Source of the DNA: Synechocystis sp. PCC 6803 substr. PCC-P
Lineage (GTDB): Bacteria > Cyanobacteriota > Cyanobacteriia > Cyanobacteriales > Microcystaceae
Reading direction: 5' to 3'
NCBI RefSeq assembly: GCF_000284455.1
Contig: NC_017039.1
Span: forward strand, 330,001-362,000
Length of the DNA stretch: 32,000 bases
Below are positions 9,658 through 31,166 of the stretch, piece after piece. The translations under genes and the position numbers were made by a program. How positions within the stretch are numbered: position 1 is the first letter of the stretch; every line of letters starts with the position of its first letter. The notes beneath the pieces are model-generated. The model was given only the letters and a program-made list of their open reading frames with translations. It was not told the DNA's origin and did not search any database.

Positions 9658-9693
9658 TTTAGCCTGAGTTGCCCCATACTGCCCCAGGCTAAA
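9658..9693 (-). terminator. Candidate hairpin downstream of metK / upstream of apcD
   Basis: 9-bp inverted repeat TTTAGCCTG (9658-9666) / CAGGCTAAA (9685-9693) with an 18-nt loop, located in the 111-nt metK-apcD gap. The long loop and the absence of a clean U-tract keep confidence low. Confidence 0.3.
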
Positions 9694-9736
9694 TACCCTC
9701 TCATCCTGAGGCAGTGTACTTTTTCCTGCTGCTTCC

Positions 9737-10999
9737 CTAGACGGCCACGGCCTGGGGGCTAGAAGCAAAAGCTGCTTTCAACACATCCACTTTGTCGGTG
9801 TATTCCCAGGGCAAATCCAGGTCATTGCGACCAAAATGGCCATAGGCGGCCACATCTTGATAAAATCTCCCCCCCCGTTCGGCGGGCAAATTCCGCAAAT
9901 TGAGGGATTGGATGATACCGGCTGGGCGCAGTTCAAAGTTTGCCAATACGACTTCCAGCAGTTTTTCTTCATCTACCTTACCGGTGCCAAAGGTATCGAT
10001 TAAAACGCTGACTGGGCGAGCAACCCCAATGGCGTAGCTGACCTGTACTTCGCATTTATCTGCTAAACCGGCAGCAACAATGTTTTTGGCCACATAGCGG
10101 GCGGCATAGGCCGCAGACCGGTCTACCTTGGTGGGATCCTTACCGGAAAAGGCACCACCGCCATGGCGGGAATAACCACCGTAGGTGTCCACAATAATTT
10201 TCCGTCCCGTTAAACCAGCATCCCCTTGGGGACCCCCCACAACAAATTTGCCAGTGGGATTAACAATAAAGCGGGTTTTATCAGTGGGCTTGAGGGCAAT
10301 GTCGCTGAAGCAATGACCCACCACTACGTCCCAAAGATCGGCTTTAATTTTGGCTTGGACTGCATCGTTGTCGGTGATATCGCCAATGTGCTCGTCGTGC
10401 TGAGTGGAAATGAGGATGGTATCAATGGCTACGGGTGAGCCATCTTCGTACAGGATGGAAACTTGGGTTTTACCGTCGGGGCGAAGATAAGCCAATTGGC
10501 CAGATTTACGTACTTCCGATAGGCGCAGGGCAATGCGGTGGGCCAAACTAATGGGTAGGGGCATCAATTCTGGGGTTTCGTTGCAAGCATAGCCAAACAT
10601 TAGGCCCTGATCGCCCGCACCGATTTTGTCTAACTCGTCGTCGCTGAGGGCATGGCGCTGTTCTTGGGCGGCGGTTACACCTTGGGAAATGTCGGGGGAC
10701 TGTTCGTCGATCGCCAGCATGACGGCACAACTGTTAGCGGAGTAGCCATTATCGGCGTTGGTGTAGCCAATTTCAGCAATTTTCTGGCGGATCAATTCGA
10801 CAAAATTAATGTGGGCTTGGGAAGTAATTTCCCCCGTCACTAGGGTCAAGCCTGTGTTGACTACGGTTTCCGCCGCTACTCGACTGTTGGGGTCCAGGGT
10901 TAGGAGGGCATCAAGGATGGTATCGGAAATCTGGTCACACACCTTATCAGGATGGCCTTCTGTCACCGACTCGGAAGTAAATAAATAGCGCTTAGACAA
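9737..10999 (-). CDS. metK: S-adenosylmethionine synthetase
   Basis: Canonical MetK sequence ([22 protein letters not shown] ..., [28 protein letters not shown]). The track start at 11038 is TTG. A TTG at 10999-10997 gives (M)SKRYLFTSE, the usual MetK N-terminus, and is preceded by GAGGA 9 nt upstream. The exact start is uncertain. Confidence 0.95.
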
Positions 11000-11134
11000 A
11001 GTCTTCAGTCCTCGTACACGATAAAGGCTATTGGGCAAACAAGACCTTCAACAAAGCTTGTTAAGTTAAATTAACATTTCATCATACAGGTTATTTTCCC
11101 TGGTACGGGAACGGAAAGGGCTAAAATTTGTTCC

Positions 11135-12139
11135 CTATGCTACCAATACCCCTGGGAATTTTTGGGCTTGGAGGGCTGTTTGTAATAGCTCCGGCCCTGC
11201 AGAAGCCAATAGAGTGGAATCACTCAGGGTACGACGCCAAAATTTAGCCCTGGGTTGACCATTGAACAAACTCAATAAATGCCTGGTAATTTGATTAAGG
11301 CGATCGCCGTGACGTAAACGCTCTTCCACATAGGGCAACATACGTTCAATAATTTCCGCTCGGCTGGGGACTAAATTGGTTTTGTGGTAAATGTCCCGGT
11401 CTACGGTGGCGAAAAGGTAGGGATTTTCGTAGGCGGCTCGGCCCACCATCACTGCATCCACATGGCTAAGATGCTGTTGAATTTGCTCAGTTTGGGTGAT
11501 ACCGCCATTAATTTCGATCAATAACTGGGGAAAATCCTTTTTTAATTGATAAACATCTTCGTAACGTAGGGGAGGAATGGTTCGGTTTTCCTTGGGACTA
11601 AGCCCCTGGAGCCAGGCTTTACGGGCATGGACAGTGAATCTTTGACAGCCAGCGTTTGCCACGATTTCGACAAAATGCACTAAATCTTCATAACTGTCCC
11701 GATGATCAATGCCAATGCGATGTTTAACGGTGACGGGAATTTCCACGGCCTTTTGCATTGCACTCACACATTGGGCTACCAAATCCGGTTGAGCCATTAA
11801 ACAAGCCCCAAAATTGCCGCTCTGCACCCGATCGCTGGGACAGCCCACATTCAAGTTAATTTCGTCATATCCCCAATCCTGGCCAATGCGGGCACATTCC
11901 GCTAGGAGTTGGGGATCATCGCCCCCCAATTGCAACGCTACGGGTTTTTCCTCCGGGCTAAAATTTAATAACCTCTGGCGATCGCCGTGGAGGATGGCCT
12001 GGGCCGTAATCATTTCTGTGTACAACAGGGTGTGGCGGGTTAACTGCCGTAGAAAATAGCGAAAATGGCGATCAGTATGGTCCATCATTGGGGCCACACT
12101 GAGGGGATTAATAGAAGAATCAGCGAAAATTTTTGTCAT
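11135..12139 (-). CDS. dusA: tRNA-dihydrouridine synthase A
   Basis: 334-aa ORF with an ATG start. APMMDHTDRHFRYFLRQLTRHTLLYTEMITAQAILHGD matches the DusA N-terminus. TIM-barrel flavoenzyme motifs are present (NLNVGCPS, VKHRIG). Confidence 0.92.
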   Translation of the reverse strand: MTKIFADSSINPLSVAPMMDHTDRHFRYFLRQLTRHTLLYTEMITAQAILHGDRQRLLNFSPEEKPVALQLGGDDPQLLAECARIGQDWGYDEINLNVGCPSDRVQSGNFGACLMAQPDLVAQCVSAMQKAVEIPVTVKHRIGIDHRDSYEDLVHFVEIVANAGCQRFTVHARKAWLQGLSPKENRTIPPLRYEDVYQLKKDFPQLLIEINGGITQTEQIQQHLSHVDAVMVGRAAYENPYLFATVDRDIYHKTNLVPSRAEIIERMLPYVEERLRHGDRLNQITRHLLSLFNGQPRAKFWRRTLSDSTLLASAGPELLQTALQAQKFPGVLVA

Positions 12140-14743: not shown

Positions 14744-15298
14744 TTAGGAACGCCGGCGAGATTTAGACTTGCCTTGGCTAGAGTGTTTTTTTTGCTGTGG
14801 CTTTAGCTTTTTTTTGAGCCAACTACCTCCCCAATCGCTCACACTATGGGCCATGGCCCCTGCCTCCAAGCCAACAAAAATTGTTAGCAGTTCCCAACGG
14901 TGTTGCTCCAGCCATTGTCTCGGGATCAACCAGTTAATTCCCTGTAAATTAAGCTTTTGTAACAGTATCAGCACTGTCCCTATGCCTGCTGAAGCCAGTA
15001 GCAGCCAACTGCCTAGATACAATAAACGCAAAATCGTACCAATCAAAAAGCCGTGGGAAAGGGGCGATCGATGGGGAATGAAGTGGCGGTAGGGAAGCCA
15101 GACCCATCTCAGCCAGCCCCACCTTTTATATTGACAGGAATGGATGTCCAGATCCGGGCCAAACATCAACCCGCTAAATCCAAAGGCGATCGCCATTAGC
15201 AGGGTTAGTCGGGCACTACCAGTGCCAATAAATGTGATGGCCATAACCGCTGGGGTGGCTCCCAGGGTAATGCGGTCATGGATTTTACCGGCGGGCAT
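14744..15298 (-). CDS. Membrane protein, DUF2227-like putative metal-binding protein
   Basis: 184-aa ORF with an ATG start. It has an N-terminal MPAGKIHDRITLG motif, His-rich conserved patches (FGPDLDIHS, HRSPLSHG), several TM helices and a Lys/Arg-rich tail. Confidence 0.65.
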   Translation of the reverse strand: MPAGKIHDRITLGATPAVMAITFIGTGSARLTLLMAIAFGFSGLMFGPDLDIHSCQYKRWGWLRWVWLPYRHFIPHRSPLSHGFLIGTILRLLYLGSWLLLASAGIGTVLILLQKLNLQGINWLIPRQWLEQHRWELLTIFVGLEAGAMAHSVSDWGGSWLKKKLKPQQKKHSSQGKSKSRRRS

Positions 15299-15535: not shown

Positions 15536-17806
15536 CTAATTGTCTGCCTGGGCAACTTTTTGACGATCGTAGTAACGGTTATTGTAGTAACGACCATAGT
15601 AGTAGCCATAACCGCCGGACGTAGAAGTGATAGCATTGGCCACAATTCCGATAACGTTGAGATCAGCCAACGCCAATTCCCGAAAAGCTTCCTTGATGCT
15701 ATCCTTGCGGGTCTTATTGAGGCGCACCACCACCACCAGACCATCGGTTTGATCTGCAATCAGACGGGAATCCGTTAGACCCAAAATGGGGGGCGTATCG
15801 ATCAAAATTAGGTCGAAAGTCTCTTTCCACTGATTCATTTTGACGACAAAATTTTGGGAAGCAGAAACCAACTGCTCCGGGGTCATGGTGTCATCTTGGA
15901 CTTTGAAGTAGAACAGATTCTTGCCCAAAGGTTCGGGTAAATCCCCATTGTGACCATTAGAGTTGGCCACCAGACTGCCGAGGACGCCATTACCATCGGG
16001 GGTGGTGTTTTCGCCTCCGAAGCCGGTAATTTCAGCTAACTTCAACCAGGACTCCTTTTGAGGAAAATAGCGATCGCCATCCACCAGCAGCACTTTTTGC
16101 CCCAACTTAGCGGCAGCTTGGGCCAGGAAAAAAGCCGTGGTAGATTTTCCATCACCGGACTCAGCCGAGGTAACCACAAAGGAATGGCACTGGCGTTTGC
16201 GCTTGAGGAAAAACAGGTTGGAATAGAGCCTAGCGTAGGACTCTTGCATTGCCTCATTGGGCAGAGGGGAGCCATACTTAATACTGGCTCGCAAATCCTT
16301 TTCCAAGGGAATGTACCCTAGGATGGTGTGGTGCTGACTAGCTCTCAAATCTTCGACACTGTGATAGGCAGGATCTAGCTTATCAACCAATAGGGCCGCG
16401 CCTCCCCCGGCCAAAAGTCCCAGCATGACAGAAAGTAAAATATCCCTGGGCAGGGTATTAATCGGTGTATCGGGTAGGGTAATGGCGGAAACTAAGCGCC
16501 AGGGTACAAAGCTCCTCGCGACCTCCACTTCCAGTGCCTGCCTTGTGGTCACTAATTGGGTTAAACCACTTCTTTGAAGCTCCAATTCCTGTTGGAGACT
16601 GGCAAACTCGCCAGCAATGGTGGTGAAATTTTCCAATTGATTTCTCAGTTCCGCTTCCGACCCAATGATACTTTCCAGTTCAATGTTGAGAATATCTAGC
16701 TCAATGCCCACACTGGCAAGTTCCTGCAAAGCTTCTGCCTTGGGCCCCCCCACGTCTGTGGCAATGAGGACCTGATCCAATTCTCCATTGCTGAGCGTCC
16801 CCTTTTCTTTTTCGGCTTCGGCTCTGATCAACTGCAAAACGTTATCCTTTTCTTCTTGCAACTGCTCCATCTGGGGGCTATTGCCAGTGTAGATGGTGCT
16901 AGCTTCCGCCAATTTGAGGTTGATTTCGTTGAGCCGACTAACTAAGCCTGCATAGACAGGGGATTGTCCCAGGGAGCTCAAGCCAAAGGCACTATTGTTA
17001 TCTATGCCCGTTTTTTGTTCCAGGGCATCTCGTTTGGCGGTTAGTTGTTGGATTTTGATCGACAAATTTTGCCGGAGCACATTAATTTCGTTGAGGCGTG
17101 AGCTGAGATTTTCTGCTGTCTGGCTAGGGTCAAAAAACTTATATTGCTGCTGCAATGCCAACATTTGCGCTTGCAACTCTGCCACCCGGTCTTGGAATTT
17201 GGGCAACTGGTCATTAACAAAGCGGAGTTTTTCACTCTCCTGTCTGGCTTGCTCTCTACGGGTGTAGTCTAAATATTGTTCAGCTAGAGCCTCCAAAACC
17301 GCCTTGACCCTTTCTTGGTCATTGCCCCGGTAGCTGATCTCAACAATGCCTGTGTCCGGCACCACCATCACCGACAGGCTAGCCAGAAAACTACTATAGG
17401 AAATTTGCTCCTCTGGGGGGAGGGCGTCATAAATTTGGCTCCAGACCGGCTCCAATAGAATATTACTTTGTAGAATTTCCGACTGGGTGTTCAAATATTC
17501 TTTGCCCCGGGGAAGGCTGCCCAGCAGTCCCGAACCTTGGAGTTGGGCCAGGGGATTAACCGTTTCATTCTCGGGGGGGGAAACCAGTAATTGGAAACTA
17601 GATTGAAAAACCGGCGGCTTATCAAGTTGCCGCTTGAGGTTCAAGCCTCCCACCGCTAGGGCCACCAGGACAACAATCCACCATCTCCTCCTCAATACAC
17701 CTGTCAGGTTACCAAGGGAAAAAGAGTCCACTTCTTCAGCACCGTATGCTCCAACTAGCGGAGGGGGGGGGCTACCTTGGGGCAATTCTGGGTAACTGTA
17801 GGTCAT
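15536..17806 (-). CDS. wzc: Polysaccharide co-polymerase / BY-type tyrosine autokinase (Wzc/GumC-EpsB family)
   Basis: 756-aa ORF with an ATG start. N-terminal TM helix (WWIVVLVALAVGGL), a long coiled-coil periplasmic region and a second TM (LLSVMLGLLAGGGAALLV). The kinase domain has Walker A SAESGDGKST, A' VLLVDGD and B DLILIDTPP. The C-terminal Tyr cluster is GGYGYYYGRYYNNRYYD. It matches my recollection of Sll0923. Confidence 0.92.
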   Translation of the reverse strand: MTYSYPELPQGSPPPPLVGAYGAEEVDSFSLGNLTGVLRRRWWIVVLVALAVGGLNLKRQLDKPPVFQSSFQLLVSPPENETVNPLAQLQGSGLLGSLPRGKEYLNTQSEILQSNILLEPVWSQIYDALPPEEQISYSSFLASLSVMVVPDTGIVEISYRGNDQERVKAVLEALAEQYLDYTRREQARQESEKLRFVNDQLPKFQDRVAELQAQMLALQQQYKFFDPSQTAENLSSRLNEINVLRQNLSIKIQQLTAKRDALEQKTGIDNNSAFGLSSLGQSPVYAGLVSRLNEINLKLAEASTIYTGNSPQMEQLQEEKDNVLQLIRAEAEKEKGTLSNGELDQVLIATDVGGPKAEALQELASVGIELDILNIELESIIGSEAELRNQLENFTTIAGEFASLQQELELQRSGLTQLVTTRQALEVEVARSFVPWRLVSAITLPDTPINTLPRDILLSVMLGLLAGGGAALLVDKLDPAYHSVEDLRASQHHTILGYIPLEKDLRASIKYGSPLPNEAMQESYARLYSNLFFLKRKRQCHSFVVTSAESGDGKSTTAFFLAQAAAKLGQKVLLVDGDRYFPQKESWLKLAEITGFGGENTTPDGNGVLGSLVANSNGHNGDLPEPLGKNLFYFKVQDDTMTPEQLVSASQNFVVKMNQWKETFDLILIDTPPILGLTDSRLIADQTDGLVVVVRLNKTRKDSIKEAFRELALADLNVIGIVANAITSTSGGYGYYYGRYYNNRYYDRQKVAQADN

Positions 17807-18700: not shown

Positions 18701-19429
18701 ATGTCAGCAATAACGGCCCAGGAACTGGAATCACAAATGCCGGATGCCACTATGCTTTTGAGTGATGAACCGGAGATGGAAAGTTCAGTGCATTATTTGC
18801 AACTGCTCTTGCTAGTTACTAGTCTGGAGTGGGCCTGGCGTCAGAGGGATGATTTTTTTATTGGTGCCAACCTAACCATCTACTTCAGTCGACAACAACT
18901 CAAACACCGTGATTTTCGAGGCCCTGATTTTTTCCTGGTCAAGAATACCACCAGACACCCCCGCAATTCCTGGGTCGTGTGGGAGGAAGACGGGCGCTAC
19001 CCCGACTTGATCATTGAGCTACTTTTCGAGTCCACTGCCAAAGTGGATAGAACCACCAAGCTGGACCTTTATGCCACTAGGTTCCACACCCCTGAGTATT
19101 TTTATTTTTCCCCTGAAACTTTGGAATTTGCCGGTTTTAGGTTAAATTTCAACCAATACTCTCCCGTAATTCCCAATGAGCAAGGATGGCTATGGAGTGA
19201 GGCGCTGGGATTTTTTCTTGGCATCCACCAGGGTCAGTTGCGCTATTTTTCCGTGGAGGGAATTTTAGTACCTACCCCTGAGGAGGCGGCCCAACAGGAA
19301 ATATTGAGGCCTGACCAGGCCATGGCAAAGGTAGAGCAGGAGGCTCAACGGGCGGACCAAGAAAAATTCAGGGCCGATCGCCTGGCGGCCAAGCTGAGGG
19401 AGTTGGGATTGGATCCCGATGATGTTTAG
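18701..19429 (+). CDS. Uma2 (DUF820) family putative endonuclease with a C-terminal coiled-coil tail, copy 2 of 5 (paralogue of 27748-28608)
   Basis: ATG start preceded by GGAGG (18691-18695) with a 5-nt spacer. The core is GPDFFLV ... YPDLIIELLFEST. The tail is charged and helical (AKVEQEAQRADQEKFRADRLAAKLRELG). The gene ends 38 nt before the wzm ATG. Confidence 0.85.
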   Translation: MSAITAQELESQMPDATMLLSDEPEMESSVHYLQLLLLVTSLEWAWRQRDDFFIGANLTIYFSRQQLKHRDFRGPDFFLVKNTTRHPRNSWVVWEEDGRYPDLIIELLFESTAKVDRTTKLDLYATRFHTPEYFYFSPETLEFAGFRLNFNQYSPVIPNEQGWLWSEALGFFLGIHQGQLRYFSVEGILVPTPEEAAQQEILRPDQAMAKVEQEAQRADQEKFRADRLAAKLRELGLDPDDV

Positions 19430-20298: not shown

Positions 20299-20487
20299 CC
20301 ATGGCAACAAACAAATGGTTTTATGAGCTATTGAAGGATTTTAAATACAGTTGCCTGAATTGGGTTTGACCGTGGCACAAGTTGCTCAGGTTGAACAGTT
20401 GAACAATGGCGATCGCCAAAGTAAGCTACCCATTAAAATAGGATTATCTTGCCCTGACCCTCAATGTGATTAAATTTCCTGGCATTA

Positions 20488-20916
20488 TTGCCATCAAGCA
20501 TCTTAACGGTGCTATTGATTACGATCGCCTTTTTGAGGTTCTATGACCAAACCGACTTTGAATTCCTCGGACTCGTTGCCAATCCCCGACAGTGGAGCAA
20601 TGGATTCACTGTGGCAGCCCTCCTGGCTACATTGGCTAATTTCGGCGTTGAGTGGAACCGTCGAAATCGAGAAACAAACCGCTTGGCTCAAGAAGCACAA
20701 CGAAGAGTTGAGGAAGGGCAACGCAGAATGGCTCAGGAAAGAGCAGATGAGTCTCGAAGAGCTGAGGAGAGAGAACGCCAAATTGCGCGAACTCGAATCG
20801 AAACTCGATGCCGTATTGCCGAAATACAATTCCAGCTTGACCCCTCAGACCGAAATCGAAGACTCTTAAGGGAGGCCTTAGCACTACTGGCTGAATATGG
20901 TGATCTGTTCTCGTAA
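20488..20916 (+). CDS. Hypothetical protein; the reading frame is uncertain (142-aa TTG-start frame versus the overlapping 108-aa ATG-start frame at 20543-20869)
   Basis: The longest ORF has a TTG start, two N-terminal hydrophobic segments and an Arg/Glu-rich remainder. The +1-shifted frame has an ATG with GAGG upstream and reads as a heptad coiled coil. See the finding for this locus. Confidence 0.4.
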   Translation: MPSSILTVLLITIAFLRFYDQTDFEFLGLVANPRQWSNGFTVAALLATLANFGVEWNRRNRETNRLAQEAQRRVEEGQRRMAQERADESRRAEERERQIARTRIETRCRIAEIQFQLDPSDRNRRLLREALALLAEYGDLFS

Positions 20917-21035
20917 AGGCGATCGCCTAGGAATTTGCCCATTACAATGAAATCATCTTCTCTCCATTTTTGATGTGGTTAGATTTTCTGGCTGACCCCA
21001 TCCAATAAAAAGAGTGACTAAATACTACTACTACT

Positions 21036-21467
21036 ATGGAGCAACTTTACGAAAGAGATTTTAGTCGATGGGCAGAAACCATGGCCGATCTCCTTGCTGC
21101 AGGGGATTTTACGTCCCTTGATATCGAGAATTTAGTGGAGGAAGTCCGGGATTTGTCAAAACGGGAAAGGGATCGCCTTTTAAGTAGTTTACGTTTAATT
21201 CTTCATCACTTCCTCAATTGGGACTACCAGCCCCAGAAACGTTCCCGCAGTTGGCAGAATACAATTGATCGAGAGCGGAACAATATTGAACTATATCTTG
21301 AGGACAGTCCCAGTCTGCAGCGTTATCTCAATGATGGGGTGTCTCTCGCTAAAATGTATCGGCTGGCGCGGGCCGACGCGATCCGGGAAACTGATTTAGA
21401 TTTTCCCAAAGATTGCCTATACGATATGGAAGATGTATTAAGTCGCGTTATTTCCCTCGGTGAATGA
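21036..21467 (+). CDS. DUF29 family protein (copy 1 of 2)
   Basis: 143-aa ORF with an ATG start. LYERDFSRWAETMADLLAAGDFTSLDIENLVEEVRDLSKRERDRLLSSLRLILHHFLNWDYQPQKRSRSWQNTI matches the DUF29 consensus as I remember it (LYExDFxxW ... LDxxNLIEEIExLG ... W.YQP..RS.SW). Confidence 0.85.
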   Translation: MEQLYERDFSRWAETMADLLAAGDFTSLDIENLVEEVRDLSKRERDRLLSSLRLILHHFLNWDYQPQKRSRSWQNTIDRERNNIELYLEDSPSLQRYLNDGVSLAKMYRLARADAIRETDLDFPKDCLYDMEDVLSRVISLGE

Positions 21468-21537
21468 TCCTCTAGAGGGCGATCGCCAAATGAAAACCAA
21501 TTGTTAAAATTAATTCACTCTTCTAAGCTGCACCATT

Positions 21538-22101
21538 ATGGCTACCGTTTTAGACCTTCAGCCAATTATTTCGTTGAACCGAGGGCAATTTTATCAGCTC
21601 TGTCAAAACAATCCTGACCTCAGCCTAGAAAGAAACCCCCAAGGGAAGCTCATCATTCTGTCCCCAGTTGGTGGTGAAAGTGGTGCCCAAGAAGCGAGCC
21701 TTATTTTCAAAGTTTCTCTCTGGAATTATCAGAGTCAACTCGGAATTGTCTTTAGTTCCTCAACAATCTTTAGCCTACCCCAAGGTGGCGATCGCTCCCC
21801 CGATGTGGCTTGGGTCTCCCGAGGTAATTGGGAAAAGTTAACCCCAGCAGAACGAGAGGGTTTTCCCCCAATTTGTCCTGATTTTGTGATTGAACTCAGA
21901 TCAAAAAGTGATCGTCTTAAACCCCTACAAGACAAAATGCTAGAGTACCTAACATCTGGTTTGCAACTAGGCTGGCTAATCAATCCACAACAAAAACAGG
22001 TGGAGATCTACCGCCAAAATCAACCCACAGAAATAACTAATCTCCCCACAAAATTGTCTGGGGAGAATGTTTTACCCGGATTTAGCATTTCTCTAGACTA
22101 G
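21538..22101 (+). CDS. Uma2 (DUF820) family putative endonuclease, copy 3 of 5
   Basis: 187-aa ORF with an ATG start. The core is SPDVAWVS ... CPDFVIELRSKSD ... KMLEYLTSGLQLGWLINPQQKQVEIY. It lies 70 nt downstream of the DUF29 gene. Confidence 0.85.
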   Translation: MATVLDLQPIISLNRGQFYQLCQNNPDLSLERNPQGKLIILSPVGGESGAQEASLIFKVSLWNYQSQLGIVFSSSTIFSLPQGGDRSPDVAWVSRGNWEKLTPAEREGFPPICPDFVIELRSKSDRLKPLQDKMLEYLTSGLQLGWLINPQQKQVEIYRQNQPTEITNLPTKLSGENVLPGFSISLD

Positions 22102-25423: not shown

Positions 25424-25993
25424 ATGACTACTATGGGAAGATTTTTGACTGAAGATTTGGGCATTGCCGGACTCAGAACCGTTATCCGTCAGCCCATCGG
25501 CGATCGCCGGGGATTTTTGGCCCGTTTGTTTTGTGCTGAGGAGTTGAAGGAAGTAGGTTGGCATAAACCCATTGCCCAGATTAACCATACCCATACGGCC
25601 CAAGGCGGCACTGTGCGAGGTATGCATTACCAAAATCCTCCCTCTGCGGAAATGAAATTGGTTACTTGCATTCGGGGTCAGGTTTGGGATGTGGCGGTGG
25701 ATTTGCGGGTTGATTCCCCCACTTTTTTGACTTGGCAAGGGGTAGTACTAAGTGCGGATAACAATAGGGCATTGTTGATACCCGAAGGCTGTGCCCATGG
25801 TTTTCAAGCCTTGAGCGATGATGTTGAATTGATTTACTGTCACTCGGTCGCCTATAACCCGATGGCGGAAGGGGGGTTGAATCCCCAAGATCCTCGCCTA
25901 GGGATTGAGTGGCCCCAAGCAATTACCGAATTATCCCAGCGAGACCAAAATCACCCCTTACTAGATTCCACCTTTTTAGGTCTGAGTTTATGA
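25424..25993 (+). CDS. RmlC-like cupin NDP-4-keto-6-deoxyhexose epimerase (3,5- or mono-epimerase; nucleotide specificity probably CDP given the context)
   Basis: 189-aa ORF. RGFLARLF ... VRGMHYQ ... KLVTCIRGQVWDVAVDLRVDSPTFLTW ... LLIPEGCAHGFQAL matches the dTDP-4-dehydrorhamnose 3,5-epimerase fold family. Confidence 0.85.
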   Translation: MTTMGRFLTEDLGIAGLRTVIRQPIGDRRGFLARLFCAEELKEVGWHKPIAQINHTHTAQGGTVRGMHYQNPPSAEMKLVTCIRGQVWDVAVDLRVDSPTFLTWQGVVLSADNNRALLIPEGCAHGFQALSDDVELIYCHSVAYNPMAEGGLNPQDPRLGIEWPQAITELSQRDQNHPLLDSTFLGLSL

Positions 25994-27210
25994 AATGTCG
26001 CCATTGCCATACACCTTTAAAGCAAACATTCCTGGATTTGGGTTTTGCCCCCCCGTCCAATGCCTATTTGAACCAGATTGATTTAAGTAGACCGGAGGTT
26101 ACTTATCCATTAAGGATCAAGGTTTGTGAACAGTGTTGGCTAGTACAAACAGAAGACTACACCCAGGCGGAAGAGTTATTCTGTGGGGACTATGCCTATT
26201 TTTCCAGCACGTCTAGTAGTTGGCTTAGCCATGCGGCCCGTTATGTGGAAAAGATTACAGAGCGGCTAGGTTTGACTACGGATAGTTTTGTCATTGAGGT
26301 GGCGGCCAATGATGGCTATCTGCTCAAGAATTTTGTGGCGGCGGGGGTTCCCTGTCTGGGCATTGAACCAACAGCTAGCACGGCGGCGGCGGCGGAAAAA
26401 CTAGGGATTGCTGTTTTAAAAGAGTTTTTTGGAGAAAATTTAGGGCGATCGCTCTCAGCAAAGGGCCAACAGGCTGATTTGATTATTGGTAATAATGTCT
26501 TTGCCCATGTACCGGATATTAATGATTTTACGTTGGGTTTAAAACAAGCCCTGAAACCAGGGGGAACCATTACCTTAGAATTTCCCCACCTAATGCAATT
26601 ACTGGCCCAGACCCAATTTGATACGGTTTACCATGAGCATTTTTCCTATCTTTCTCTCTACACGGTCACAAAAATCTTTGCTAAAGCTGGCTTGCAGGTG
26701 TGGGATGTGGAAGAGTTACCTACCCATGGCGGCAGTTTACGGGTCTATGGCTGTCATCTAGGCGATCGCCAAGTTAGTGAGCGAGTAAGGGAATTATTGA
26801 AACAGGAAACGGCCCAGGGTTTACAGGATTTAGCAATCTATCAGCATTTCCAGGAACGGGCAGATCAGATTAAAAATCAATTGCTAGCCTTTTTGATTGA
26901 ACAGAAAACAGCGGGGAAGGTGGTGGCCGGTTATGGGGCAGCGGCTAAAGGTAATACTTTGCTCAATTATGCTGGGGTGAAACCGGATTTGTTGCCCTTT
27001 GTTTGTGATGCATCTTCATCTAAGCAGGGTAAGTTTTTACCCGGTAGTCATATTGCCATTTTGCCTCCAACGGCGATCGCCGAAAAACACCCGGATTTTG
27101 TCCTGATTTTGCCTTGGAATTTACGGACAGAGATCATGACCCAGTTGGGCTATGTGGGAGACTGGGGGGGGCAATTTGTGACCGCAATTCCTAATTTACA
27201 GATTTGTTAG
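25990..27210 (+). CDS. SAM-dependent NDP-hexose C-methyltransferase (TylC3-like: N-terminal Zn-ribbon, class I methyltransferase core, C-methyltransferase C-terminal domain)
   Basis: From the ATG at 25990 (ATGA overlap with the epimerase stop) the ORF reads MKCRHCHTPLKQTFLDLGFAPPSNAYL ... CEQCWLVQ, which forms a four-Cys ribbon. The SAM motif is VIEVAANDGYLL, and the C-terminal domain contains VAGYGAAAKGNTLLNY. The track start at 25909 is an upstream extension inside the previous gene. Confidence 0.85.
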   Translation: MKCRHCHTPLKQTFLDLGFAPPSNAYLNQIDLSRPEVTYPLRIKVCEQCWLVQTEDYTQAEELFCGDYAYFSSTSSSWLSHAARYVEKITERLGLTTDSFVIEVAANDGYLLKNFVAAGVPCLGIEPTASTAAAAEKLGIAVLKEFFGENLGRSLSAKGQQADLIIGNNVFAHVPDINDFTLGLKQALKPGGTITLEFPHLMQLLAQTQFDTVYHEHFSYLSLYTVTKIFAKAGLQVWDVEELPTHGGSLRVYGCHLGDRQVSERVRELLKQETAQGLQDLAIYQHFQERADQIKNQLLAFLIEQKTAGKVVAGYGAAAKGNTLLNYAGVKPDLLPFVCDASSSKQGKFLPGSHIAILPPTAIAEKHPDFVLILPWNLRTEIMTQLGYVGDWGGQFVTAIPNLQIC

Positions 27211-27244: not shown

Positions 27245-27697
27245 ATGGTTGAAGCAACAGCCCTCACCTCACTTTACGAACAAGATTATCCTGCCTGGTT
27301 AGATTTGACCCTAACACAACTTAAACAGCAGCAATTTAGCGTCATTGATTGGGCTAATTTGATTGAGGAAATAGAAGAATTGGGCCGAGAACAACGACAC
27401 AAGGTAGAAAGTTATCTGTTGCGTCTTCTCATCCACCTACTTTTGTACGAGCATTGGCAAGCTGAACGCCCCTGGTCAGGTAAAGGCTGGGAAAAAGAGA
27501 TTGATAATTTTCGGTTAGAGCTTGATTCCCTGCTGGAGTCCCAAGTTCTTCATAACCATTTTGAGACAGTTCTACCAAAAAACTACGCCAAAGCCCGCAA
27601 ACTGGCTATCAAAAAATCTCACTTATCACCAACAATATTTCCTGAAGTTTGTCCCTATACCCTGGGTCAAATTCTTGACTTTGGTTGGTTGCCATAA
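27245..27697 (+). CDS. DUF29 family protein (copy 2 of 2)
   Basis: 150-aa ORF with an ATG start. LYEQDYPAWLDLTLTQLKQQQFSVIDWANLIEEIEELGREQRHKVESYLLRLLIHLLLYEHW ... FPEVCPYTLGQILDFGWLP follows the DUF29 pattern. Confidence 0.85.
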   Translation: MVEATALTSLYEQDYPAWLDLTLTQLKQQQFSVIDWANLIEEIEELGREQRHKVESYLLRLLIHLLLYEHWQAERPWSGKGWEKEIDNFRLELDSLLESQVLHNHFETVLPKNYAKARKLAIKKSHLSPTIFPEVCPYTLGQILDFGWLP

Positions 27698-27747
27698 TCA
27701 AAAAAGTTTTTATAATTGTTGGTAAATTTACCGGACGATTAAGTATT

Positions 27748-28608
27748 ATGTCTGCCATAACTGCCCAAGAGTTAGAAGCTCAAATGCCCGATGCTAGTCA
27801 ATTATTGAGCGATGAACCAGAAATGGAAAGTTCTTTGCACTATATGCAGTTACTACTGTTAGTTACCTGCTTAGAATTGGCCTGGCAAGACCGAAACGAT
27901 TTTTTTATTGGTGCAAATTTGACTATCTATTTTAGCCGTCAGCAATTAAAGAGTCATGACTTTCGTGGTCCTGACTTTTTCTTGGTTAAAAATACTGCCA
28001 GAAAACCTCGAAAATCTTGGGTGGTTTGGGAGGAAGATGGTCGCTATCCTGATTTGATTATTGAGCTTTTATCGGATTCGACTGCAGACACTGATCGCCA
28101 TTTGAAACGAGATTTATACGCAGAAAGATTTCATACACCAGAATATTTTTATTTTTCTCCGGATACCCTGGAGTTGGCGGGCTTTAGGCTAGATGGTGAC
28201 AAGTATCAACCTATTATACCCAATGATCAGGGTTGGCTTTGGAGTAAGGTGCTGGGTTTTTTCTTGGGAATAGAGGGGCAAGAATTGCGCTATTTCACCC
28301 TAGAGGGCGCTGTTCTCCCCACCCCCCAAGAAGCGGTAAGAATAGAAGTGGACAAGGGGATGGCCATGGTTGAACAGGAAAGACTCAAGGCAATTCAAGC
28401 TGAGCAGGATGCTGAACAGGAAAGACTCAAGGCAACTCAAGCTCAACAGGATGCTGAACAGGAAAGACTCAAGGCAATTCAAGCTCAACAGGATGCTGAA
28501 CAGGAAAGACTCAAGGCAATTCAAGCTCAACAGGATGCTGAACAGGCTAAGGCTGAACTACAAAAATTACAAGATAAAGTTAGATCCCTTGGTATTTCTA
28601 TAGATTAA
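27748..28608 (+). CDS. Uma2 (DUF820) family putative endonuclease with an expanded repetitive coiled-coil tail, copy 4 of 5
   Basis: The alignment to the paralogue at 18701 begins exactly at MSAITAQELE, so I take the ATG at 27748 rather than the track start at 27685. The core is GPDFFLV ... YPDLIIELLSDST. The tail contains four 14-aa repeats. Confidence 0.87.
   Translation: MSAITAQELEAQMPDASQLLSDEPEMESSLHYMQLLLLVTCLELAWQDRNDFFIGANLTIYFSRQQLKSHDFRGPDFFLVKNTARKPRKSWVVWEEDGRYPDLIIELLSDSTADTDRHLKRDLYAERFHTPEYFYFSPDTLELAGFRLDGDKYQPIIPNDQGWLWSKVLGFFLGIEGQELRYFTLEGAVLPTPQEAVRIEVDKGMAMVEQERLKAIQAEQDAEQERLKATQAQQDAEQERLKAIQAQQDAEQERLKAIQAQQDAEQAKAELQKLQDKVRSLGISID
28382..28549 (+). repeat. 42-bp tandem repeat, 4 full copies plus a partial fifth, in-frame within the Uma2 gene
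   Basis: The unit is gaacaggaaagactcaaggcaattcaagctcaacaggatgct. Copies 3 and 4 are identical, copy 2 differs by 1 nt and copy 1 by 2 nt. Each unit encodes EQERLKAIQAQQDA, which is two heptads. Confidence 0.95.
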
Positions 28609-28615
28609 TTAGTTT

Positions 28616-28666
28616 ATGTCTAAATTCCGCGTTTACTACACTAATCCCTCGATCACCAAACTTTAA
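28616..28666 (+). pseudogene. Relic copy A of the 5' end of the DegT aminotransferase gene (17-codon stub ending in TAA)
   Basis: atgtctaaattccgcgtttactacactaatccctcgatcaccaaactttaa encodes MSKFRVYYTNPSITKL*. The live gene at 30030 begins MAKSRIYYTKPSITEL. The relic starts 7 nt after the Uma2 stop at 28608. Confidence 0.8.
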
Positions 28667-28759
28667 AGTGGAGAACTCCACCGCTGAGGCCAGCTATGAA
28701 GAAAAGATGCTAAAAGGTCACTTAGTTCTTAATTTACTTAACGGGGAAAATAAACTGCT

Positions 28760-29350
28760 ATGGTTTTTACATTAGAAAAGTCTCAATCAGCGGCTAATCA
28801 CTTAGTTTTACCAGGTGTTTCTTGGGAAAAGTTTGAGGAAATTGAAGCTACTTTTGAAGGTATTGAAGGAGTTCGTTTTATTTATTTAGATGGAGAGCTG
28901 GAAATTGTTATGAGTCCAAGCAAGGCCCATGAAAAAGCAAAAAGTACTATTGGGCTTTTGCTGGAAGCCTATATGAGGGCAAAGAAAATCAGGTTTTATA
29001 CGATGGGTAGTTTAACTTTAGGTACGAAAGAAGTTACGGGACGAAAGGAGCCAGATGAGTCCTATAATATTCACATAGTAAAGGACATTCCCGATTTAGT
29101 TATTGAGGTAATTGTCACTAGCGGGAGTATTAATATTTTGGAAATATACCGCCGCATTGGTGTTCCCGAAGTTTGGTTTTATCAGGATTCTGCATTGACC
29201 GTTTACACGCTTAAAGAGGGACAATATTTGAAGGTTGATAACAGTCAATTATTGCCAGAATTAAATCTAGAAATATTCGTAAAATATGTTAGTCACCCGG
29301 ATCAATATGATGCGGTAACTGAATTTATTGATGAGTTAACCTGTCTATAA
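28760..29350 (+). CDS. Uma2 (DUF820) family putative endonuclease, copy 5 of 5
   Basis: 196-aa ORF with an ATG start. LVLPGVSWEKFEEIEATFEGIEGVRFIYLDGELEIVMSPSKAHEKAKSTIGLLLEAY ... EPDESYNI ... IPDLVIEVIVTSGS ... YRRIGVPEVWFY follows the Uma2 pattern. The gene is visibly AT-rich. Confidence 0.85.
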   Translation: MVFTLEKSQSAANHLVLPGVSWEKFEEIEATFEGIEGVRFIYLDGELEIVMSPSKAHEKAKSTIGLLLEAYMRAKKIRFYTMGSLTLGTKEVTGRKEPDESYNIHIVKDIPDLVIEVIVTSGSINILEIYRRIGVPEVWFYQDSALTVYTLKEGQYLKVDNSQLLPELNLEIFVKYVSHPDQYDAVTEFIDELTCL

Positions 29351-29358
29351 TCGTTTTT

Positions 29359-29400
29359 ATTGCTAAATCCCGCATTTACTACACCAAGCCGTTGATCGCC
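29359..29400 (+). pseudogene. Relic copy B of the 5' end of the DegT aminotransferase gene (start codon degraded to ATT)
   Basis: attgctaaatcccgcatttactacaccaagccgttgatcgcc encodes (I)AKSRIYYTKPLIA. It has 2 mismatches to the live gene over the first 30 nt. It starts 8 nt after the Uma2 stop at 29350 and runs directly into the DUF4160 gene. Confidence 0.8.
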
Positions 29401-29405
29401 ATACA

Positions 29406-29663
29406 ATGCCCATTATTAGTCGTTTTTTAGGAATCACAATCTGCATGTACTAGAATGATCGTTCGCCTCCCCACTACCATGCAAGATACGGTGAATATGA
29501 AATCATTGTCGAAATCGAAACAGGTGTAGTGAATGGGTCATTTCCAAAACGAGCATTACGTCATGTTTTAGAATGGCATGATTTACATCAACCCGAGTTA
29601 ATAGCCAATTGGCAACTTTGTCGCCAACAAGAAGATCTAAAATTCATTCTTCCTTTGGAGTAA
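29406..29663 (+). pseudogene. DUF4160 family gene interrupted by an in-frame TAG at codon 16
   Basis: Below the 60-aa threshold of the ORF track. Hand translation gives MPIISRFLGITICMY*NDRSPPHYHARYGEYEIIVEIETGVVNGSFPKRALRHVLEWHDLHQPELIANWQLCRQQEDLKFILPLE*. This is full-length colinear with the DUF4160 consensus (MP.IS.F.GI.I.MY.NDH.PPHFHA.YGEYEA...). The TAG at 29451-29453 replaces a conserved aromatic residue. Confidence 0.7.
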
Positions 29664-29667
29664 AGTT

Positions 29668-29973
29668 ATGTTTTTACATGTTGTTTCTGCTTCTTACATG
29701 GATAACTACAAAATTAAGCTTCAATTTAATGATCATCGTACTGGAATTGTCGATCTAGTCGATAGTTTAAACGGCAAGATGTTTAGTCCATTGCAAGATC
29801 TGGTTTTGTTTCAACAATTTGGAGTTGATGCAGAATTGGGAACAGTTTGTTGGTCAAATGGTGCTGACTTTGCGCCTGAATATCTGTATTTTCTCGCATT
29901 TCGTGATCTTCCTGAATTGAAGGAACAGTTTGAAAAATGGGGGTATTTGCGAGCTAAAGTTGCCGTTAGTTGA
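29668..29973 (+). CDS. DUF2442 family protein (usual partner of DUF4160)
   Basis: 101-aa ORF with an ATG 4 nt after the DUF4160 stop. YKIKLQFNDHRTGIVDL ... FGVDAELGTVCWSNGADFAPEYLY is the typical DUF2442 pattern. Confidence 0.8.
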   Translation: MFLHVVSASYMDNYKIKLQFNDHRTGIVDLVDSLNGKMFSPLQDLVLFQQFGVDAELGTVCWSNGADFAPEYLYFLAFRDLPELKEQFEKWGYLRAKVAVS

Positions 29974-30029
29974 TTCTACCTCTGAAATAAATAACCCTGA
30001 TATGTGGAGTTCAAATTAAGACTGATTTT

Positions 30030-31166
30030 ATGGCTAAATCCCGCATTTACTACACTAAGCCCTCAATAACTGAGCTGGAAGTCGAGTATGCTACTGATGC
30101 CGCTCGCAATGGCTGGGGCGATCGCTGTTATGAATATATTGTGCGTTTTGAAGAAGTATTTAAAAAATATTTAGGGGTCGAATATAGCATTGCAACTTCT
30201 AGCTGTACGGGGGCTTTGCACATGGGGATGGCGGCTCTGGGGATTGGCCCTGGTGATGAGGTGATTTTAGCGGATACGAATTGGATTGCTACGGTGGCTC
30301 CCATTGTCCATCTGGGGGCCAAGCCGGTATTTGTGGATATTTTGCCAGATAGTTGGTGTATTGATCCCGTTTTGGCGGAGCAAGCGATTACGCCACGGAC
30401 GAAGGCGATTGTGGCGACTCATATTTACGGCAATCTCTGTGATATGGAGGCTTTATTGGCGATCGAGCAACGCCATGGCATTCCGATTATTGAGGATGCG
30501 GCAGAGGCGATCGGCTCGGTTTACCATGGCAAGCGGGCTGGCTCGATGGGTAAGTTTGGCAGTTTTTCTTTCCACGGTACGAAGACGTTGACAACTGGGG
30601 AAGGGGGGATGTTCGTGACCAATGATCCTGATTTATACGAGACGGTGTTAACGCTCTCGAATCATGGCCGGGCTAGGGGGCAAACGAAGCAGTTTTGGGC
30701 GGATATGGTGGGCTTTAAATATAAGATGTCCAATATCCAAGCGGCGATCGGCTGTGCTCAAATGGAGCGCATTGAAGAGTTGGTTAGCCGTAAACGGGAA
30801 ATCCTTAGTTACTATAAAGAAAATTTGGAGTCTTTACCGGGGATAACAATGAATCCTGAGCCAAAGGGTATGGTTAATGGTGGATGGATGCCAACGGCGG
30901 TATTTAGCCCTGAATCTGGTATTACTCGGGAAAAGTTACAAGTCCTTTTTAAGGAGGCGAATGTGGATGCCCGTGTTTTCTTTTGGCCGTTATCGAGTTT
31001 ATCGATGTTTGATGATAAGCCCACAAATAAGTTGGCATGGGATATTCCAACAAGGGCAATAAATTTGCCTAGTTATCATGATTTGAGTGGCAAGGATATT
31101 AAACAGGTTATTGATTCTATGACAGACAATCTTTATCCGAAAAACGCAAATAGATCAAAAAAATGA
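30030..31166 (+). CDS. DegT/DnrJ/EryC1/StrS family PLP-dependent NDP-sugar aminotransferase
   Basis: 378-aa ORF with an ATG start. It contains TSSCTGALHMGMAALGIGPGDEVI, DAAEAIGS and FSFHGTKTLTTGEGG. The PLP lysine is present, which argues for an aminotransferase rather than an E1-type 3-dehydrase. Confidence 0.9.
   Translation: MAKSRIYYTKPSITELEVEYATDAARNGWGDRCYEYIVRFEEVFKKYLGVEYSIATSSCTGALHMGMAALGIGPGDEVILADTNWIATVAPIVHLGAKPVFVDILPDSWCIDPVLAEQAITPRTKAIVATHIYGNLCDMEALLAIEQRHGIPIIEDAAEAIGSVYHGKRAGSMGKFGSFSFHGTKTLTTGEGGMFVTNDPDLYETVLTLSNHGRARGQTKQFWADMVGFKYKMSNIQAAIGCAQMERIEELVSRKREILSYYKENLESLPGITMNPEPKGMVNGGWMPTAVFSPESGITREKLQVLFKEANVDARVFFWPLSSLSMFDDKPTNKLAWDIPTRAINLPSYHDLSGKDIKQVIDSMTDNLYPKNANRSKK

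Follow-up and report, generated by a model that had tools for sequence, protein, structure and literature searches.

The aminotransferase gene of the DegT/DnrJ/EryC1 family in a 32,000-nucleotide stretch of the Synechocystis sp. PCC 6803 genome (hereafter, the window) is preceded by two relics, A and B, which are probably the dead 5′ ends of earlier DegT alleles, left as scars when blocks of DNA were replaced serially through host recombination. The relics are real and derived from the gene, and their divergence from the live copy built up under selection at the protein level. Each cassette was found in another genome in combination with a live DegT gene, and the empty site exists as well. The locus and its relatives form a readable fossil record, with an empty site, intermediate states, and up to three stacked scars, which suggests that recombination by the host with diverged alleles was the vehicle.

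The arrangement of the locus is given in Table 1, and the first ∼45 nt of the live DegT gene are referred to as copy C. The N-terminus encoded by the live gene is kept in about 160 relatives. DUF4160 is the first gene of a DUF4160/DUF2442 pair, and a protein identical to the DUF2442 product of the window carries the name slr1614 in Synechocystis sp. PCC 6803. The product of the second Uma2 gene matched the candidate defense family PDC-S17 in PADLOC (E = 8e-73).

Table 1. Features from the C-methyltransferase gene to the live DegT gene, in window coordinates.
Feature	Coordinates	Strand	Evidence and remarks
C-methyltransferase gene	25909..27210	+	Pfam Methyltransf_13, Methyltransf_14; putative ancestral immediate upstream neighbor of DegT
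DUF29 gene, accessory insert	27245..27697	+	Pfam DUF29, E = 8e-44
Uma2-1, long Uma2 nuclease-like gene	27748..28608	+	Pfam Uma2
Relic A, probable dead 5′ end of earlier DegT allele	28616..28713	+	Repeat and self-alignment vs. copy C
Uma2-2 unit	28714..29358	+	ORF 28760-29350, 46-nt leader; Pfam Uma2
Relic B, probable dead 5′ end of second DegT allele	29359..29405	+	14 codons, ATG changed to ATT, plus 5 nt
DUF4160 pseudogene	29406..29663	+	Pfam DUF4160, E = 1.9e-19; in-frame TAG at codon 16
DUF2442 gene (slr1614), intact	29668..29973	+	Pfam DUF2442
56-nt spacer	29974..30029	+	Moves together with the DUF2442-DegT block
Live DegT/DnrJ/EryC1-family aminotransferase gene	30030..31166	+	Pfam DegT_DnrJ_EryC1, E = 5.8e-130

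The three direct copies of the DegT 5′ end begin where the original prediction had placed them, at 28616, 29359, and 30030, and the neighboring genes and spacer lengths (7, 8, and 56 nt) also agree with it. The copies make up one repeat family, D4, at 28613-28661, 29356-29404 (80%), and 30027-30075 (82%), and the 23-mer GCTAAATCCCGCATTTACTACAC, searched with ≤3 mismatches, matched at these three copies only, with 0 matches in 100 shuffles. Relic A is present at the expected site but is longer than had been thought, since it goes on past its TAA: the similarity between A and C spans 86 nt (28613-28698 vs. 30027-30111, 72%), ∼27 codons are recognizable, and the TAA is created by one extra base (a +1 frameshift) after codon 16, beyond which the frame-corrected relic reads KVENSTAEA where C reads EVEYATDAA. 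Because the Uma2-2 unit begins at 28714, the position at which homology to a related locus (L166) begins, relic A can occupy no more than the interval listed in Table 1. Between -4 and +32, 34 of the 36 positions of relic B are the same as in C, and the two can be aligned up to nt 42. Relic B is a hybrid, with a C-like 5′ part of 30 nt, identical to C at 29 of the 30 positions, and a 3′ part of 15 nt that is common to the relics in loci L004 and L164. This near-identity (29/30) speaks against host recombination to the extent that it needs an extra step, either gene conversion or crossing over within relic B.

Relics in the window are 42 and ∼85-98 nt long, and those elsewhere measure 42 to 205 nt; instead of the landing zone of 45-60 nt that had been claimed, the joins were found at ∼42 nt and at 85-98 nt. 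Among the 170 loci that were fetched, the 45-mer occurred only at DegT starts or in relics upstream of them, which rules out a generic dispersed repeat. Nor are the relics absent from orthologous loci, being kept in L004, L164, and L168, and L164 has an ortholog of relic A with a different stop.

The way in which the copies differ from one another carries most of the argument. Differences between relic and live copies, sorted by codon position, numbered 9/4/18 in the window (p = 0.008) and 37/16/93 in nine relic/live pairs at other loci (p = 7e-15), and Nei-Gojobori estimates gave pS 0.55 and pN 0.16 in the window (Fisher p = 1.4e-4) and pS 0.44 and pN 0.069 for seven pairs at other loci (p = 8e-28), all of the compared sequences being short (42-200 nt). 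For relic A against C, pS was 0.45-0.75 and pN 0.14-0.29. That the differences are mainly synonymous and at third codon positions shows that the copies diverged as working genes in different genomes, in line with the earlier argument that they are not a simple target-site duplication. When relic A was compared with its L164 ortholog, pS was 0.10 and pN 0.12, which is the neutral pattern expected after inactivation. Orthologous B relics, when compared, also showed pS greater than pN, and the history of B therefore does not consist of one event followed by neutral decay.

These patterns make it quite improbable that the copies arose in situ, by an insertion with long target duplication in which a staggered break is filled in over 45-100 nt and the upstream copy decays. 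Decay of one copy should hit the codon positions roughly evenly, contrary to the strong synonymous and third-position bias, and the 42 to 205 nt spread of repeat lengths, the presence elsewhere of every cassette with a live gene, and the finding that live copies of other genomes are closer to several methyltransferase 3′ relics than the adjoining live copy is also speak against it. What an in situ duplication would account for is the 34/36 identity of B and C over their first part, and the architecture does fit that described for restriction-modification units (PMC2853133), with direct repeats of >30 bp, no mobility genes, and hosts that are mostly competent species, including Microcystis.

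The related loci supply the empty site and the intermediate states. As anticipated in the proposed check for empty sites, 101 of 134 related loci have the C-methyltransferase stop directly next to, or overlapping with, the DegT start. Close relatives of Uma2-1 lie 10-15 nt upstream of a live DegT gene in L009 and L091, and Uma2-1 is the former upstream neighbor of the DegT allele that is now relic A. L010 contains DUF2442b, then CTTT, then a live DegT gene, and its junction, AACTTTATG, is the same as that before relic B in L164 and L004. In L168 there are three DegT 5′ relics and no live DegT gene, so that even copy C is a relic there, and the third of them is followed by unrelated sugar genes. 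The proposals that the events were serial, and that every incoming block came with a DegT 5′ end of its own, leaving the resident start stranded, were both supported.

Colinearity of the window with the Snowella locus L004 begins exactly at relic B and extends through DUF4160, DUF2442, and DegT onward, with the genes 84-88% identical, relic B 74.5%, and the 56-nt spacer 68% compared with 85-88% for the genes on its two sides, whereas upstream of relic B the window has Uma2-2 and L004 has DUF2442b. In Snowella, the ortholog of relic B and the live copy of that genome are just 67% identical. Four loci, namely the window, L004, L164, and L168, share an identical B/DUF4160 junction; DUF4160 is intact in L168, has been disrupted independently in L004 (TAA at codon 60), and carries an internal deletion in L164. 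The Uma2-2 unit, with both ends unchanged, was also found in a different setting in L166 (window 28714-29359 vs. L166 795-1440, 83%). The shared B/DUF4160 junction and the ends of Uma2-2 could hint at discrete units with defined ends, which would count against host recombination. Between the DUF4160/DUF2442 pair and a copy in an unrelated context (L170), the coding sequence alone is common, and close relatives of these cassettes are also found in unrelated contexts without DegT.

Similar scars lie at gene ends of many other bacteria. The same architecture was seen at the 3′ end of a CmcI-like methyltransferase gene in L001 (from the same genome as the window), L010, L020, L088, L091, and L014/L016, at the 3′ end of the C-methyltransferase gene in L112 and L078, and at the DegT 5′ end in L044; because the 3′ ends of two methyltransferase genes bear such relics, the phenomenon is not specific to 5′ ends. 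Units bracketed by scars belong to Uma2, DUF29, DUF4160/DUF2442, PemK, and RelE/YafQ-like and MNT/HEPN-like families, and ordinary sugar genes are bracketed likewise in L044, L078, L014/L016, and L168. Arrays with near-identical separator units occur in L026 (92-98%) and L010 (89-91%). No relic accompanies four of the cassette insertions at the same junction, so relic formation is occasional. The original prediction had likened the insertions to a tRNA-island-like element aiming at the 5′ end of the gene, but the 3′-end scars, the many cassette families, the plain sugar genes, and the insertions without relics do not favor a targeted element. Since there is no specificity for 5′ ends, for a cassette family, or for selfish cassettes, we judge host recombination to be a better explanation than the unexplained mechanism to which the prediction had resorted.

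The exact boundary at relic B may also be read in another way, in which gene-end relics serve as portable homology arms, and relic and live gene end together make an addiction or defense cassette a self-contained knock-in construct. The two arms would overlap, each being homologous to an uninterrupted target. A linear donor consisting of relic, cassette, and gene start would enter any genome with an intact gene, whatever lies upstream, and would spread by host recombination (natural transformation), with the duplication remade each time and arrays growing without an integrase. Colinearity of the window and L004 that stops precisely at B, with different upstream contexts and an identical B/DUF4160 junction, would follow from such transfers, as would the near-identical separators in L026 and L010 and the hybrid structure of relic B, whose 5′ 30 nt vary between genomes while its 3′ 15 nt are common. 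Orthologous B relics differ mostly synonymously, as expected if the 5′ part was derived in each case from the lineage's own live gene. We nevertheless regard this reading as unlikely, given that 42-100 nt is short for RecA-dependent recombination, the B junction is present in four loci only, cassettes without a relic and ordinary sugar genes with the same scars are both found, and the hybrid can be accounted for just as well by gene conversion between B and C.

An even lower probability attaches to a site-specific or homing element, in which a Uma2 or DUF4160 nuclease would cut the cassette-free DegT 5′ end and repair would copy the cassette together with donor flank, much as free-standing homing endonuclease genes co-convert their flanks. 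The Pfam description of Uma2 is that of a putative restriction endonuclease, and the B/DUF4160 junction identical in four loci and the Uma2-2 ends defined in two contexts would suit such an element. However, the same scars accompany six or more unrelated cassette families, as well as non-selfish sugar genes, at several gene ends, three of the four genomes have DUF4160 only as a pseudogene, close relatives of the cassettes sit in unrelated contexts without DegT, and the junctions showed no conserved target motif. A local tandem duplication, in which cassette and DegT start were copied as one unit and then diverged, is effectively refuted because the cassettes share no homology. Although two of the three units start with Uma2-family genes, self-BLAST detected no nucleotide similarity between Uma2-1 and Uma2-2, and DUF4160/DUF2442 makes up the third unit. 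The relics, which are non-functional, also resemble each other more closely than do the genes supposedly duplicated with them; in L020, the relics have 81-83% DNA identity, while its two DUF4160/DUF2442 pairs are clearly more diverged as protein, as judged by eye from translations.

No recombinase domain was found in any ORF from 25.9 to 32 kb, where Pfam gives Uma2, DUF29, DUF4160, and DUF2442 for the inserts, and terminal inverted repeats and terminators were looked for and none were found, confirming the earlier statement that no integrase, transposase, or terminal inverted repeats are visible. A DNA transposon or insertion sequence was rejected on the grounds that transposase and terminal inverted repeats are missing and the duplications are long and variable in length. 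An integrase-mediated island was rejected as well, there being no tyrosine or serine recombinase, and relic lengths vary, so that there is no fixed att core. Integron arrays resemble the locus in having promoterless small cassettes, often toxin-antitoxin genes, in one orientation and with repeated separators, but they depend on intI and attC; intI was not found in the window, nor were attC-like imperfect palindromes (judged without a formal attC model), and the separators between cassettes are coding fragments of the neighboring DegT gene, so an integron was also discarded.

For host recombination, we infer the nature of the left-hand join, the route of DNA entry, and the order of events as follows. 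In the ancestral state, the C-methyltransferase gene would have run straight into DegT, and DNA of related but diverged sugar-gene clusters would have arrived several times, with natural transformation of this polyploid cyanobacterium as the assumed route. Synechocystis PCC 6803 is naturally transformable. Each incoming block would have comprised a small accessory unit and the donor's own DegT gene. The right-hand crossover could be ordinary homologous recombination within or beyond DegT, and the left-hand join, 42 to ∼98 nt inside the resident DegT gene, may have been illegitimate or may have formed via short homology to a pre-existing relic. The product would be a complete gene with the incoming start and read-through transcription, and the resident start would be stranded beside the accessory gene that once preceded it. 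Repeated rounds could have yielded the order Uma2-1, A, Uma2-2, B, DUF4160/DUF2442, and C, and a cassette-encoded recombinase would not be needed.

The closest published class is the insertion with long target duplication of restriction-modification units (Nobusato et al., 2000; Furuta et al., 2010, PMC2853133), for which an amplification-release cycle through the repeats has been proposed (PMC2853133). Like the units studied here, this class combines a selfish unit, direct repeats of >30 bp, a target that is single-copy in relatives, and no transposase or integrase; at our locus, repeats of 42 to ∼98 nt flank both units, the empty target is single-copy, and mobility genes are missing. In contrast, the published repeats hardly differ from one another or from the empty target, whereas those described here are 72-92% identical (A-C, 72-82%) with synonymous-biased differences (pS far above pN) and so derive from different alleles. 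Furthermore, the inserts here are toxin-antitoxin-like, Uma2, DUF29, DUF4160/DUF2442, and even sugar genes rather than restriction-modification systems, and several events have piled up one after another at a single gene end. No methyltransferase/restriction pair was found, Uma2 alone being annotated by Pfam as 'Putative restriction endonuclease'.

Several other systems share part of this behavior. Homology-facilitated illegitimate recombination during natural transformation, which has reportedly been shown in Acinetobacter and Streptococcus, combines one homologous anchor with one illegitimate join and needs no mobile-element enzyme, and when the illegitimate join falls inside a resident gene, a stranded gene fragment is therefore predicted. 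At our locus, the xenologous live and relic copies and the colinear donor-type blocks would be in keeping with such an anchor. The hallmark of this type of recombination is microhomology (3-8 nt) at the join, and to our knowledge serial build-up at one junction has not been described for it. End-restoring elements include tRNA/tmRNA islands, SXT at the prfC 5′ end, and phage 21 and e14 at the icd 3′ end. They too bring in a surrogate gene end and leave the displaced original as a diverged relic at the far side, and the incoming DNA did so here, where the copies are xenologous and cassettes with live genes occur elsewhere; however, those elements have a tyrosine recombinase, a defined att core, and lengths of 10-100 kb, unlike the 0.6-0.75 kb units with variable joins and no recombinase seen here. 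In the atp6 gene of Allomyces, a mitochondrial endonuclease ORF is said to bring a foreign 3′ end and strand the resident one. A small ORF at a gene end, xenologous end replacement, and an original end that becomes a relic are common to both cases, but the Allomyces case is organellar and endonuclease-driven, while the cassette families here are heterogeneous and mostly not nucleases. Minimal mobile elements of Neisseria, a concept to which PMC3787668 and PMC1797815 refer, are cassettes swapped by homologous recombination in conserved flanking genes. They also represent an integrase-free exchange of alternative cassettes between conserved flanks in a transformable bacterium, but with clean replacement, whereas here each event leaves behind a piece of the gene end, which may in turn act as a flank.

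Small toxin-antitoxin, nuclease, and defense-like genes often lie between conserved genes with no mobile-element machinery nearby, and their route of arrival matters for defense-island and pangenome work. The third-position bias between relic and live copies offers a simple sequence test that distinguishes imported allele ends from in situ duplications. Should relics indeed act as homology arms, they would define a recombination-dependent class of mobile cassettes and a route by which defense and toxin-antitoxin genes reach hotspots between core genes. The surface-polysaccharide cluster of PCC 6803 is a mosaic, and for its annotation, short ORFs like MSKFRVYYTNPSITKL represent fragments of pseudogenes rather than genes. 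The order DUF29 then Uma2 occurs twice in the window, and in L016 (Pseudanabaenaceae) DUF29 is again followed by a Uma2-1-like gene upstream of DegT. The 3′ end of Uma2-1 also contains 42-nt tandem repeats (repeat family D1).

The start of the DegT aminotransferase gene occurs three times in a surface-polysaccharide cluster, as one live copy (C) and two dead upstream copies (relics A and B), and the surrounding gene order is given in the table. A repeat search of the window returned the copies as one three-member family (28613-28661, 29356-29404 and 30027-30075), and the gene-start 23-mer, with 3 mismatches allowed, matched only the three copy sites and nothing in 100 shuffles. Chance and a generic repeat were both rejected as the source of the copies, and the three predicted DegT starts are real. 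BLASTN aligned A with C over a longer stretch than the original prediction had given (28613-28698 to 30027-30111; 72% identity), and past codon 16, after one extra base, the DegT reading resumes in A (KVENSTAEA versus EVEYATDAA in C). A further extension of relic A was rejected: by-eye codon alignments of sequence past ~28700 with later DegT codons were unconvincing, and a comparison locus, L166, places 28714 onward in the Uma2#2 unit. Copies B and C agree at 34 of 36 positions and diverge beyond them, but can be aligned up to nt 42. The spacers preceding A, B and C, of 7, 8 and 56 nt, are as first described. In the search for a donor of relic A, no DegT 5' end among 160 loci was nearer to A than C is.

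Features of the window, in gene order
Feature	Coordinates
Wzm and Wzt transporter genes	
CDP-glucose pathway genes	
RmlC-like epimerase gene	
C-methyltransferase	25909-27210
DUF29	27245-27697
Uma2#1	27748-28608
Relic A	28616-28713
Uma2#2	28760-29350
Relic B	29359-29405
DUF4160 pseudogene	29406-29663
DUF2442	29668-29973
DegT/DnrJ/EryC1-family aminotransferase	30030-31166

No intrinsic-terminator-like site was found between 27000 and 30300, against an expectation of 2.9 from shuffled sequence, and a single strong promoter-like site (27689-27716; 11/12 matches) lies just 5' of Uma2#1, consistent with transcription of the cassettes by read-through as operon members. An exact match to the live DegT protein is also encoded on chromosomes such as CP129343.1, and the DUF2442 protein directly upstream is slr1614 of Synechocystis sp. 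PCC 6803, by the name of the matching protein. The order DUF29 then Uma2 is seen twice in the window (21036-22101; 27245-28608) and again 5' of DegT in a Pseudanabaenaceae locus (L016), suggesting a two-gene module. The third Uma2 of the window (18701-19429) shows 69% DNA identity to Uma2#1 over 590 nt. The C-terminal tail of Uma2#1 contains four tandem 42-nt repeats (28371-28546; 96-97% identical) encoding EQERLKAIQAQQDA units, and its relatives in L016, L087, L091 and L166 carry such repeats in other numbers and variants.

We fetched 160 loci encoding relatives of the window aminotransferase, and located the C-methyltransferase 3' end upstream of the gene in 134 of them. In 101 of the 134, the DegT start adjoins or overlaps the methyltransferase stop, indicating that methyltransferase straight into DegT is the ancestral order and providing the empty sites proposed as a check on the original prediction of serial insertion at the DegT 5' end. 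In another 31, mostly from cyanobacteria, an insert separates the two genes, and this junction is an insertion hotspot. At four loci where a cassette at the junction is followed by live DegT (L009, L010, L012, L091), no relic was found 5' of the cassette, local alignments there being no better than shuffles.

Informative intermediates were found by exact-protein look-ups of cassette homologs; in one scan of metagenomes, no closer relative exceeded 81% protein identity. In a Snowella MAG (L004), whose DegT is 88% identical, colinearity with the window begins exactly at the first base of relic B and continues through DUF4160, DUF2442, DegT and the next genes, at 78% identity overall. The genes in this stretch are 84-88% identical, relic B 74.5% and the spacer 68%, so that relic B has been evolving like non-coding DNA. 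A Logan contig (L164), ~88% identical to the window, has the order Uma2#1 end, relic A with another stop, Uma2#2, a DUF433 and PIN-like pair, a second pair (DUF4160b/DUF2442b), relic B, an internally deleted DUF4160, DUF2442 and live DegT. In L168, RmlC is followed by a 26-codon DegT relic, DUF4160b/DUF2442b, relic B, intact DUF4160, DUF2442, a 46-codon DegT relic and unrelated sugar genes, and all three DegT starts are dead. DUF2442b is joined through CTTT to a live DegT in L010, and the same junction, AACTTTATG, stands before relic B in L164 and L004; in L009 and L091, a Uma2#1-like gene lies 10-15 nt 5' of live DegT. Cassette and live-gene states in other genomes thus match relic A and the ancestral form of relic B, each taken with its upstream cassette. 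L166 carries the Uma2#2 unit in a different context but with both ends unchanged (window 28714-29359), which fixes the boundaries of the unit, and no fetched locus had a live counterpart of the window's junction of Uma2#2 to B.

These loci also yielded several minor observations. DUF4160 was broken independently in three genomes, by TAG at codon 16 in the window (29451-29453), TAA at codon 60 in L004 (1539-1541) and internal deletion in L164 (~2240), and is intact in L168; its partner DUF2442 has stayed whole in each of the four. Should the pair be a toxin-antitoxin system, one of its two members has been lost repeatedly. In an unrelated context, L170 carries a close relative of the pair that has only coding sequence in common with it. 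This closest non-DegT copy (L169 4605-5385; L170 176-2282) lies near RuBisCO genes in a toxin-antitoxin-rich stretch, with 44-nt HIP1-rich repeats on both sides that recur several times in the stretch; as HIP1-rich short repeats, they were rejected as gene-end relics. Behind the Uma2#1-like gene of L166 (469-764), a probable glycosyltransferase 5' fragment (by eye) and a 62-codon C-methyltransferase 3' fragment precede the Uma2#2 unit, so that debris from several kinds of gene end is piled in one intergenic stretch; after the unit (~1497-1520), a DegT-like snippet, seen by eye only, overlaps a HIP1-like motif. The DUF2442-DegT spacer of L164 has a second copy behind the DUF433 and PIN-like pair (1519-1556 and 2559-2592; 82% over 34 nt), which may be the leftover 3' flank of another DUF2442-type unit.

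If an insertion had duplicated its target and stranded one copy, decay should be even over the three codon positions. Relic-to-live differences in the window were instead distributed 9/4/18 by codon position (p = 0.008), and those of nine relic/live pairs at other loci 37/16/93 (p = 7e-15). By the Nei-Gojobori method, the proportions of synonymous (pS) and nonsynonymous (pN) differences were 0.55 and 0.16 in the window (Fisher p = 1.4e-4), and 0.44 and 0.069 in seven pairs elsewhere (p = 8e-28). A small control of five differences, relic A against its L164 ortholog, gave pS 0.10 and pN 0.12, as expected for neutral change once a copy is inactive. Several methyltransferase 3' relics were also nearer to live copies of other genomes than to the adjacent live copy. 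The codon-position and pS/pN biases and these cross-genome affinities indicate that most relic/live divergence arose in working genes of different lineages, and the uneven differences led us to reject a decayed in-situ target duplicate as the origin of the relics. The original interpretation is borne out in part: the view that these are serial events other than target-site duplication holds, and divergence accrued in working genes supports the proposal that incoming blocks brought their own 5' end.

The same scars were found at other gene ends. In the PCC 6803 genome itself (L001), ~2.9-3.6 kb past the 3' end of the window, a 76-nt relic of a CmcI-like methyltransferase 3' end (14870-14945 versus 15574-15649; the last ~25 codons, 76% identity) follows a 68-aa ORF and PemK toxin pair, just 5' of the next glycosyltransferase gene. 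The 3' end of CmcI-like genes elsewhere has left two relics behind a 189-aa ORF and a second, short ORF that is RelB-like by eye (L010), relics of 200 and 60 nt with two DUF4160/DUF2442 pairs (L020), a relic with an inserted pair, RelE/YafQ-like by eye (L088), and a relic with a DUF29 insert (L091); in L014 and L016, methyltransferase 3'-end relics are present and the CmcI-like gene itself is swapped for a divergent paralog. In L112, copies of the C-methyltransferase 3' end flank an inserted gene pair that is MNT/HEPN-like by eye, and in L078 they flank a reverse-strand gene; in Rhizobium (L044), 205 nt across the DegT start flank two reverse-strand sugar genes. Since the inserts come from at least six unrelated families, with ordinary biosynthetic genes among them, a cassette-encoded enzyme cannot be the common cause, and the phenomenon is general and cassette-independent. 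Between 27.0 and 30.3 kb of the window, no recombinase and no terminal inverted repeats were found. A targeted element, as the original prediction implied, is not borne out.

Most likely, host recombination brought in blocks from diverged sugar clusters. One crossover would be homologous, in or past a conserved gene, and the other join would fall a few dozen to ~200 nt into the end of the resident gene. Selection would retain only products with flanking genes intact, which would explain why the scars are gene ends, and repeated events would pile them up. Such a relic-bearing product is the expected outcome of homology-facilitated illegitimate recombination, a process whose hallmark is microhomology at the illegitimate join, and the host is naturally transformable and polyploid, which the proposed mechanism fits. 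A literature search that paired this kind of recombination with toxin-antitoxin returned nothing relevant; among the titles and opening abstract lines of papers matching DUF4160, DUF2442, Uma2 and DUF29, none on their mobility was found, and several titles were on toxin-antitoxin topics.

Of the published classes, the nearest is "insertion with long target duplication", described for restriction-modification units and characterized by long direct repeats, an absence of mobility genes, a bias toward competent species, a Microcystis example and an unexplained mechanism (PMC2853133). The window scars share this architecture, but the two repeats do not both copy a single target, and none of the inserts is a restriction-modification system. 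The resemblance to islands that carry an integrase and rebuild tRNA, prfC or icd ends is limited to the outcome, and unlike Neisseria minimal mobile elements, the window case leaves duplicated gene ends. The window array is neither an integron nor a transposon.

Relic B of the window is a hybrid, in which the first 30 nt are C-like (29/30) and differ from those of the Snowella and L164 relics, while the last 15 nt and the DUF4160 junction are common to all; differences among orthologous B relics are mostly synonymous. The hybrid reflects either partial conversion by C, or crossovers inside the relic as the block entered a genome with live DegT, and the latter reading leads to the idea that relics act as portable homology arms. 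The idea is compatible with, though not proved by, the L026 and L010 arrays, whose separators are near-identical, and an L167 array flanked by 99-nt repeats.

The L026 array (8759-11987) consists of a 352-aa gene, two inserted pairs (by eye, PemK-like and nucleotidyltransferase/HEPN-like) and a DUF4160/DUF2442 pair. Its separators are a ~130-nt unit, 92-98% identical, in which the first 76 nt of the 352-aa gene are fused to ~30 nt from its end, and the same RBS-ATG leader follows two of them; the layout is similar to that of an integron, but the separators are gene-derived. The L167 array (3852-6705) comprises Uma2, Phd/YoeB, a second Uma2 with 91% identity to the first one, MazE/PemK and a 115-nt Uma2 3'-end relic, which indicates that a Uma2 gene can itself be the duplicated target. 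The whole array lies between the 99-nt direct repeats, which are 75% identical to each other; the second is just 5' of a GT2 gene.

Within the window, no Wzm or Wzt gene-end relics were found, and self-BLAST detected no other relic-type repeat except a weak 79-nt pair at 20.4-21.0 kb. This direct repeat (20405-20483 and 20915-20992; 68-73% identity), with a HIP1 motif (GGCGATCGCC) inside, flanks a 142-aa ORF (20488-20916; family unassigned) between the Wzm gene and DUF29, and may be another insertion-with-duplication scar, though not one derived from a gene end.
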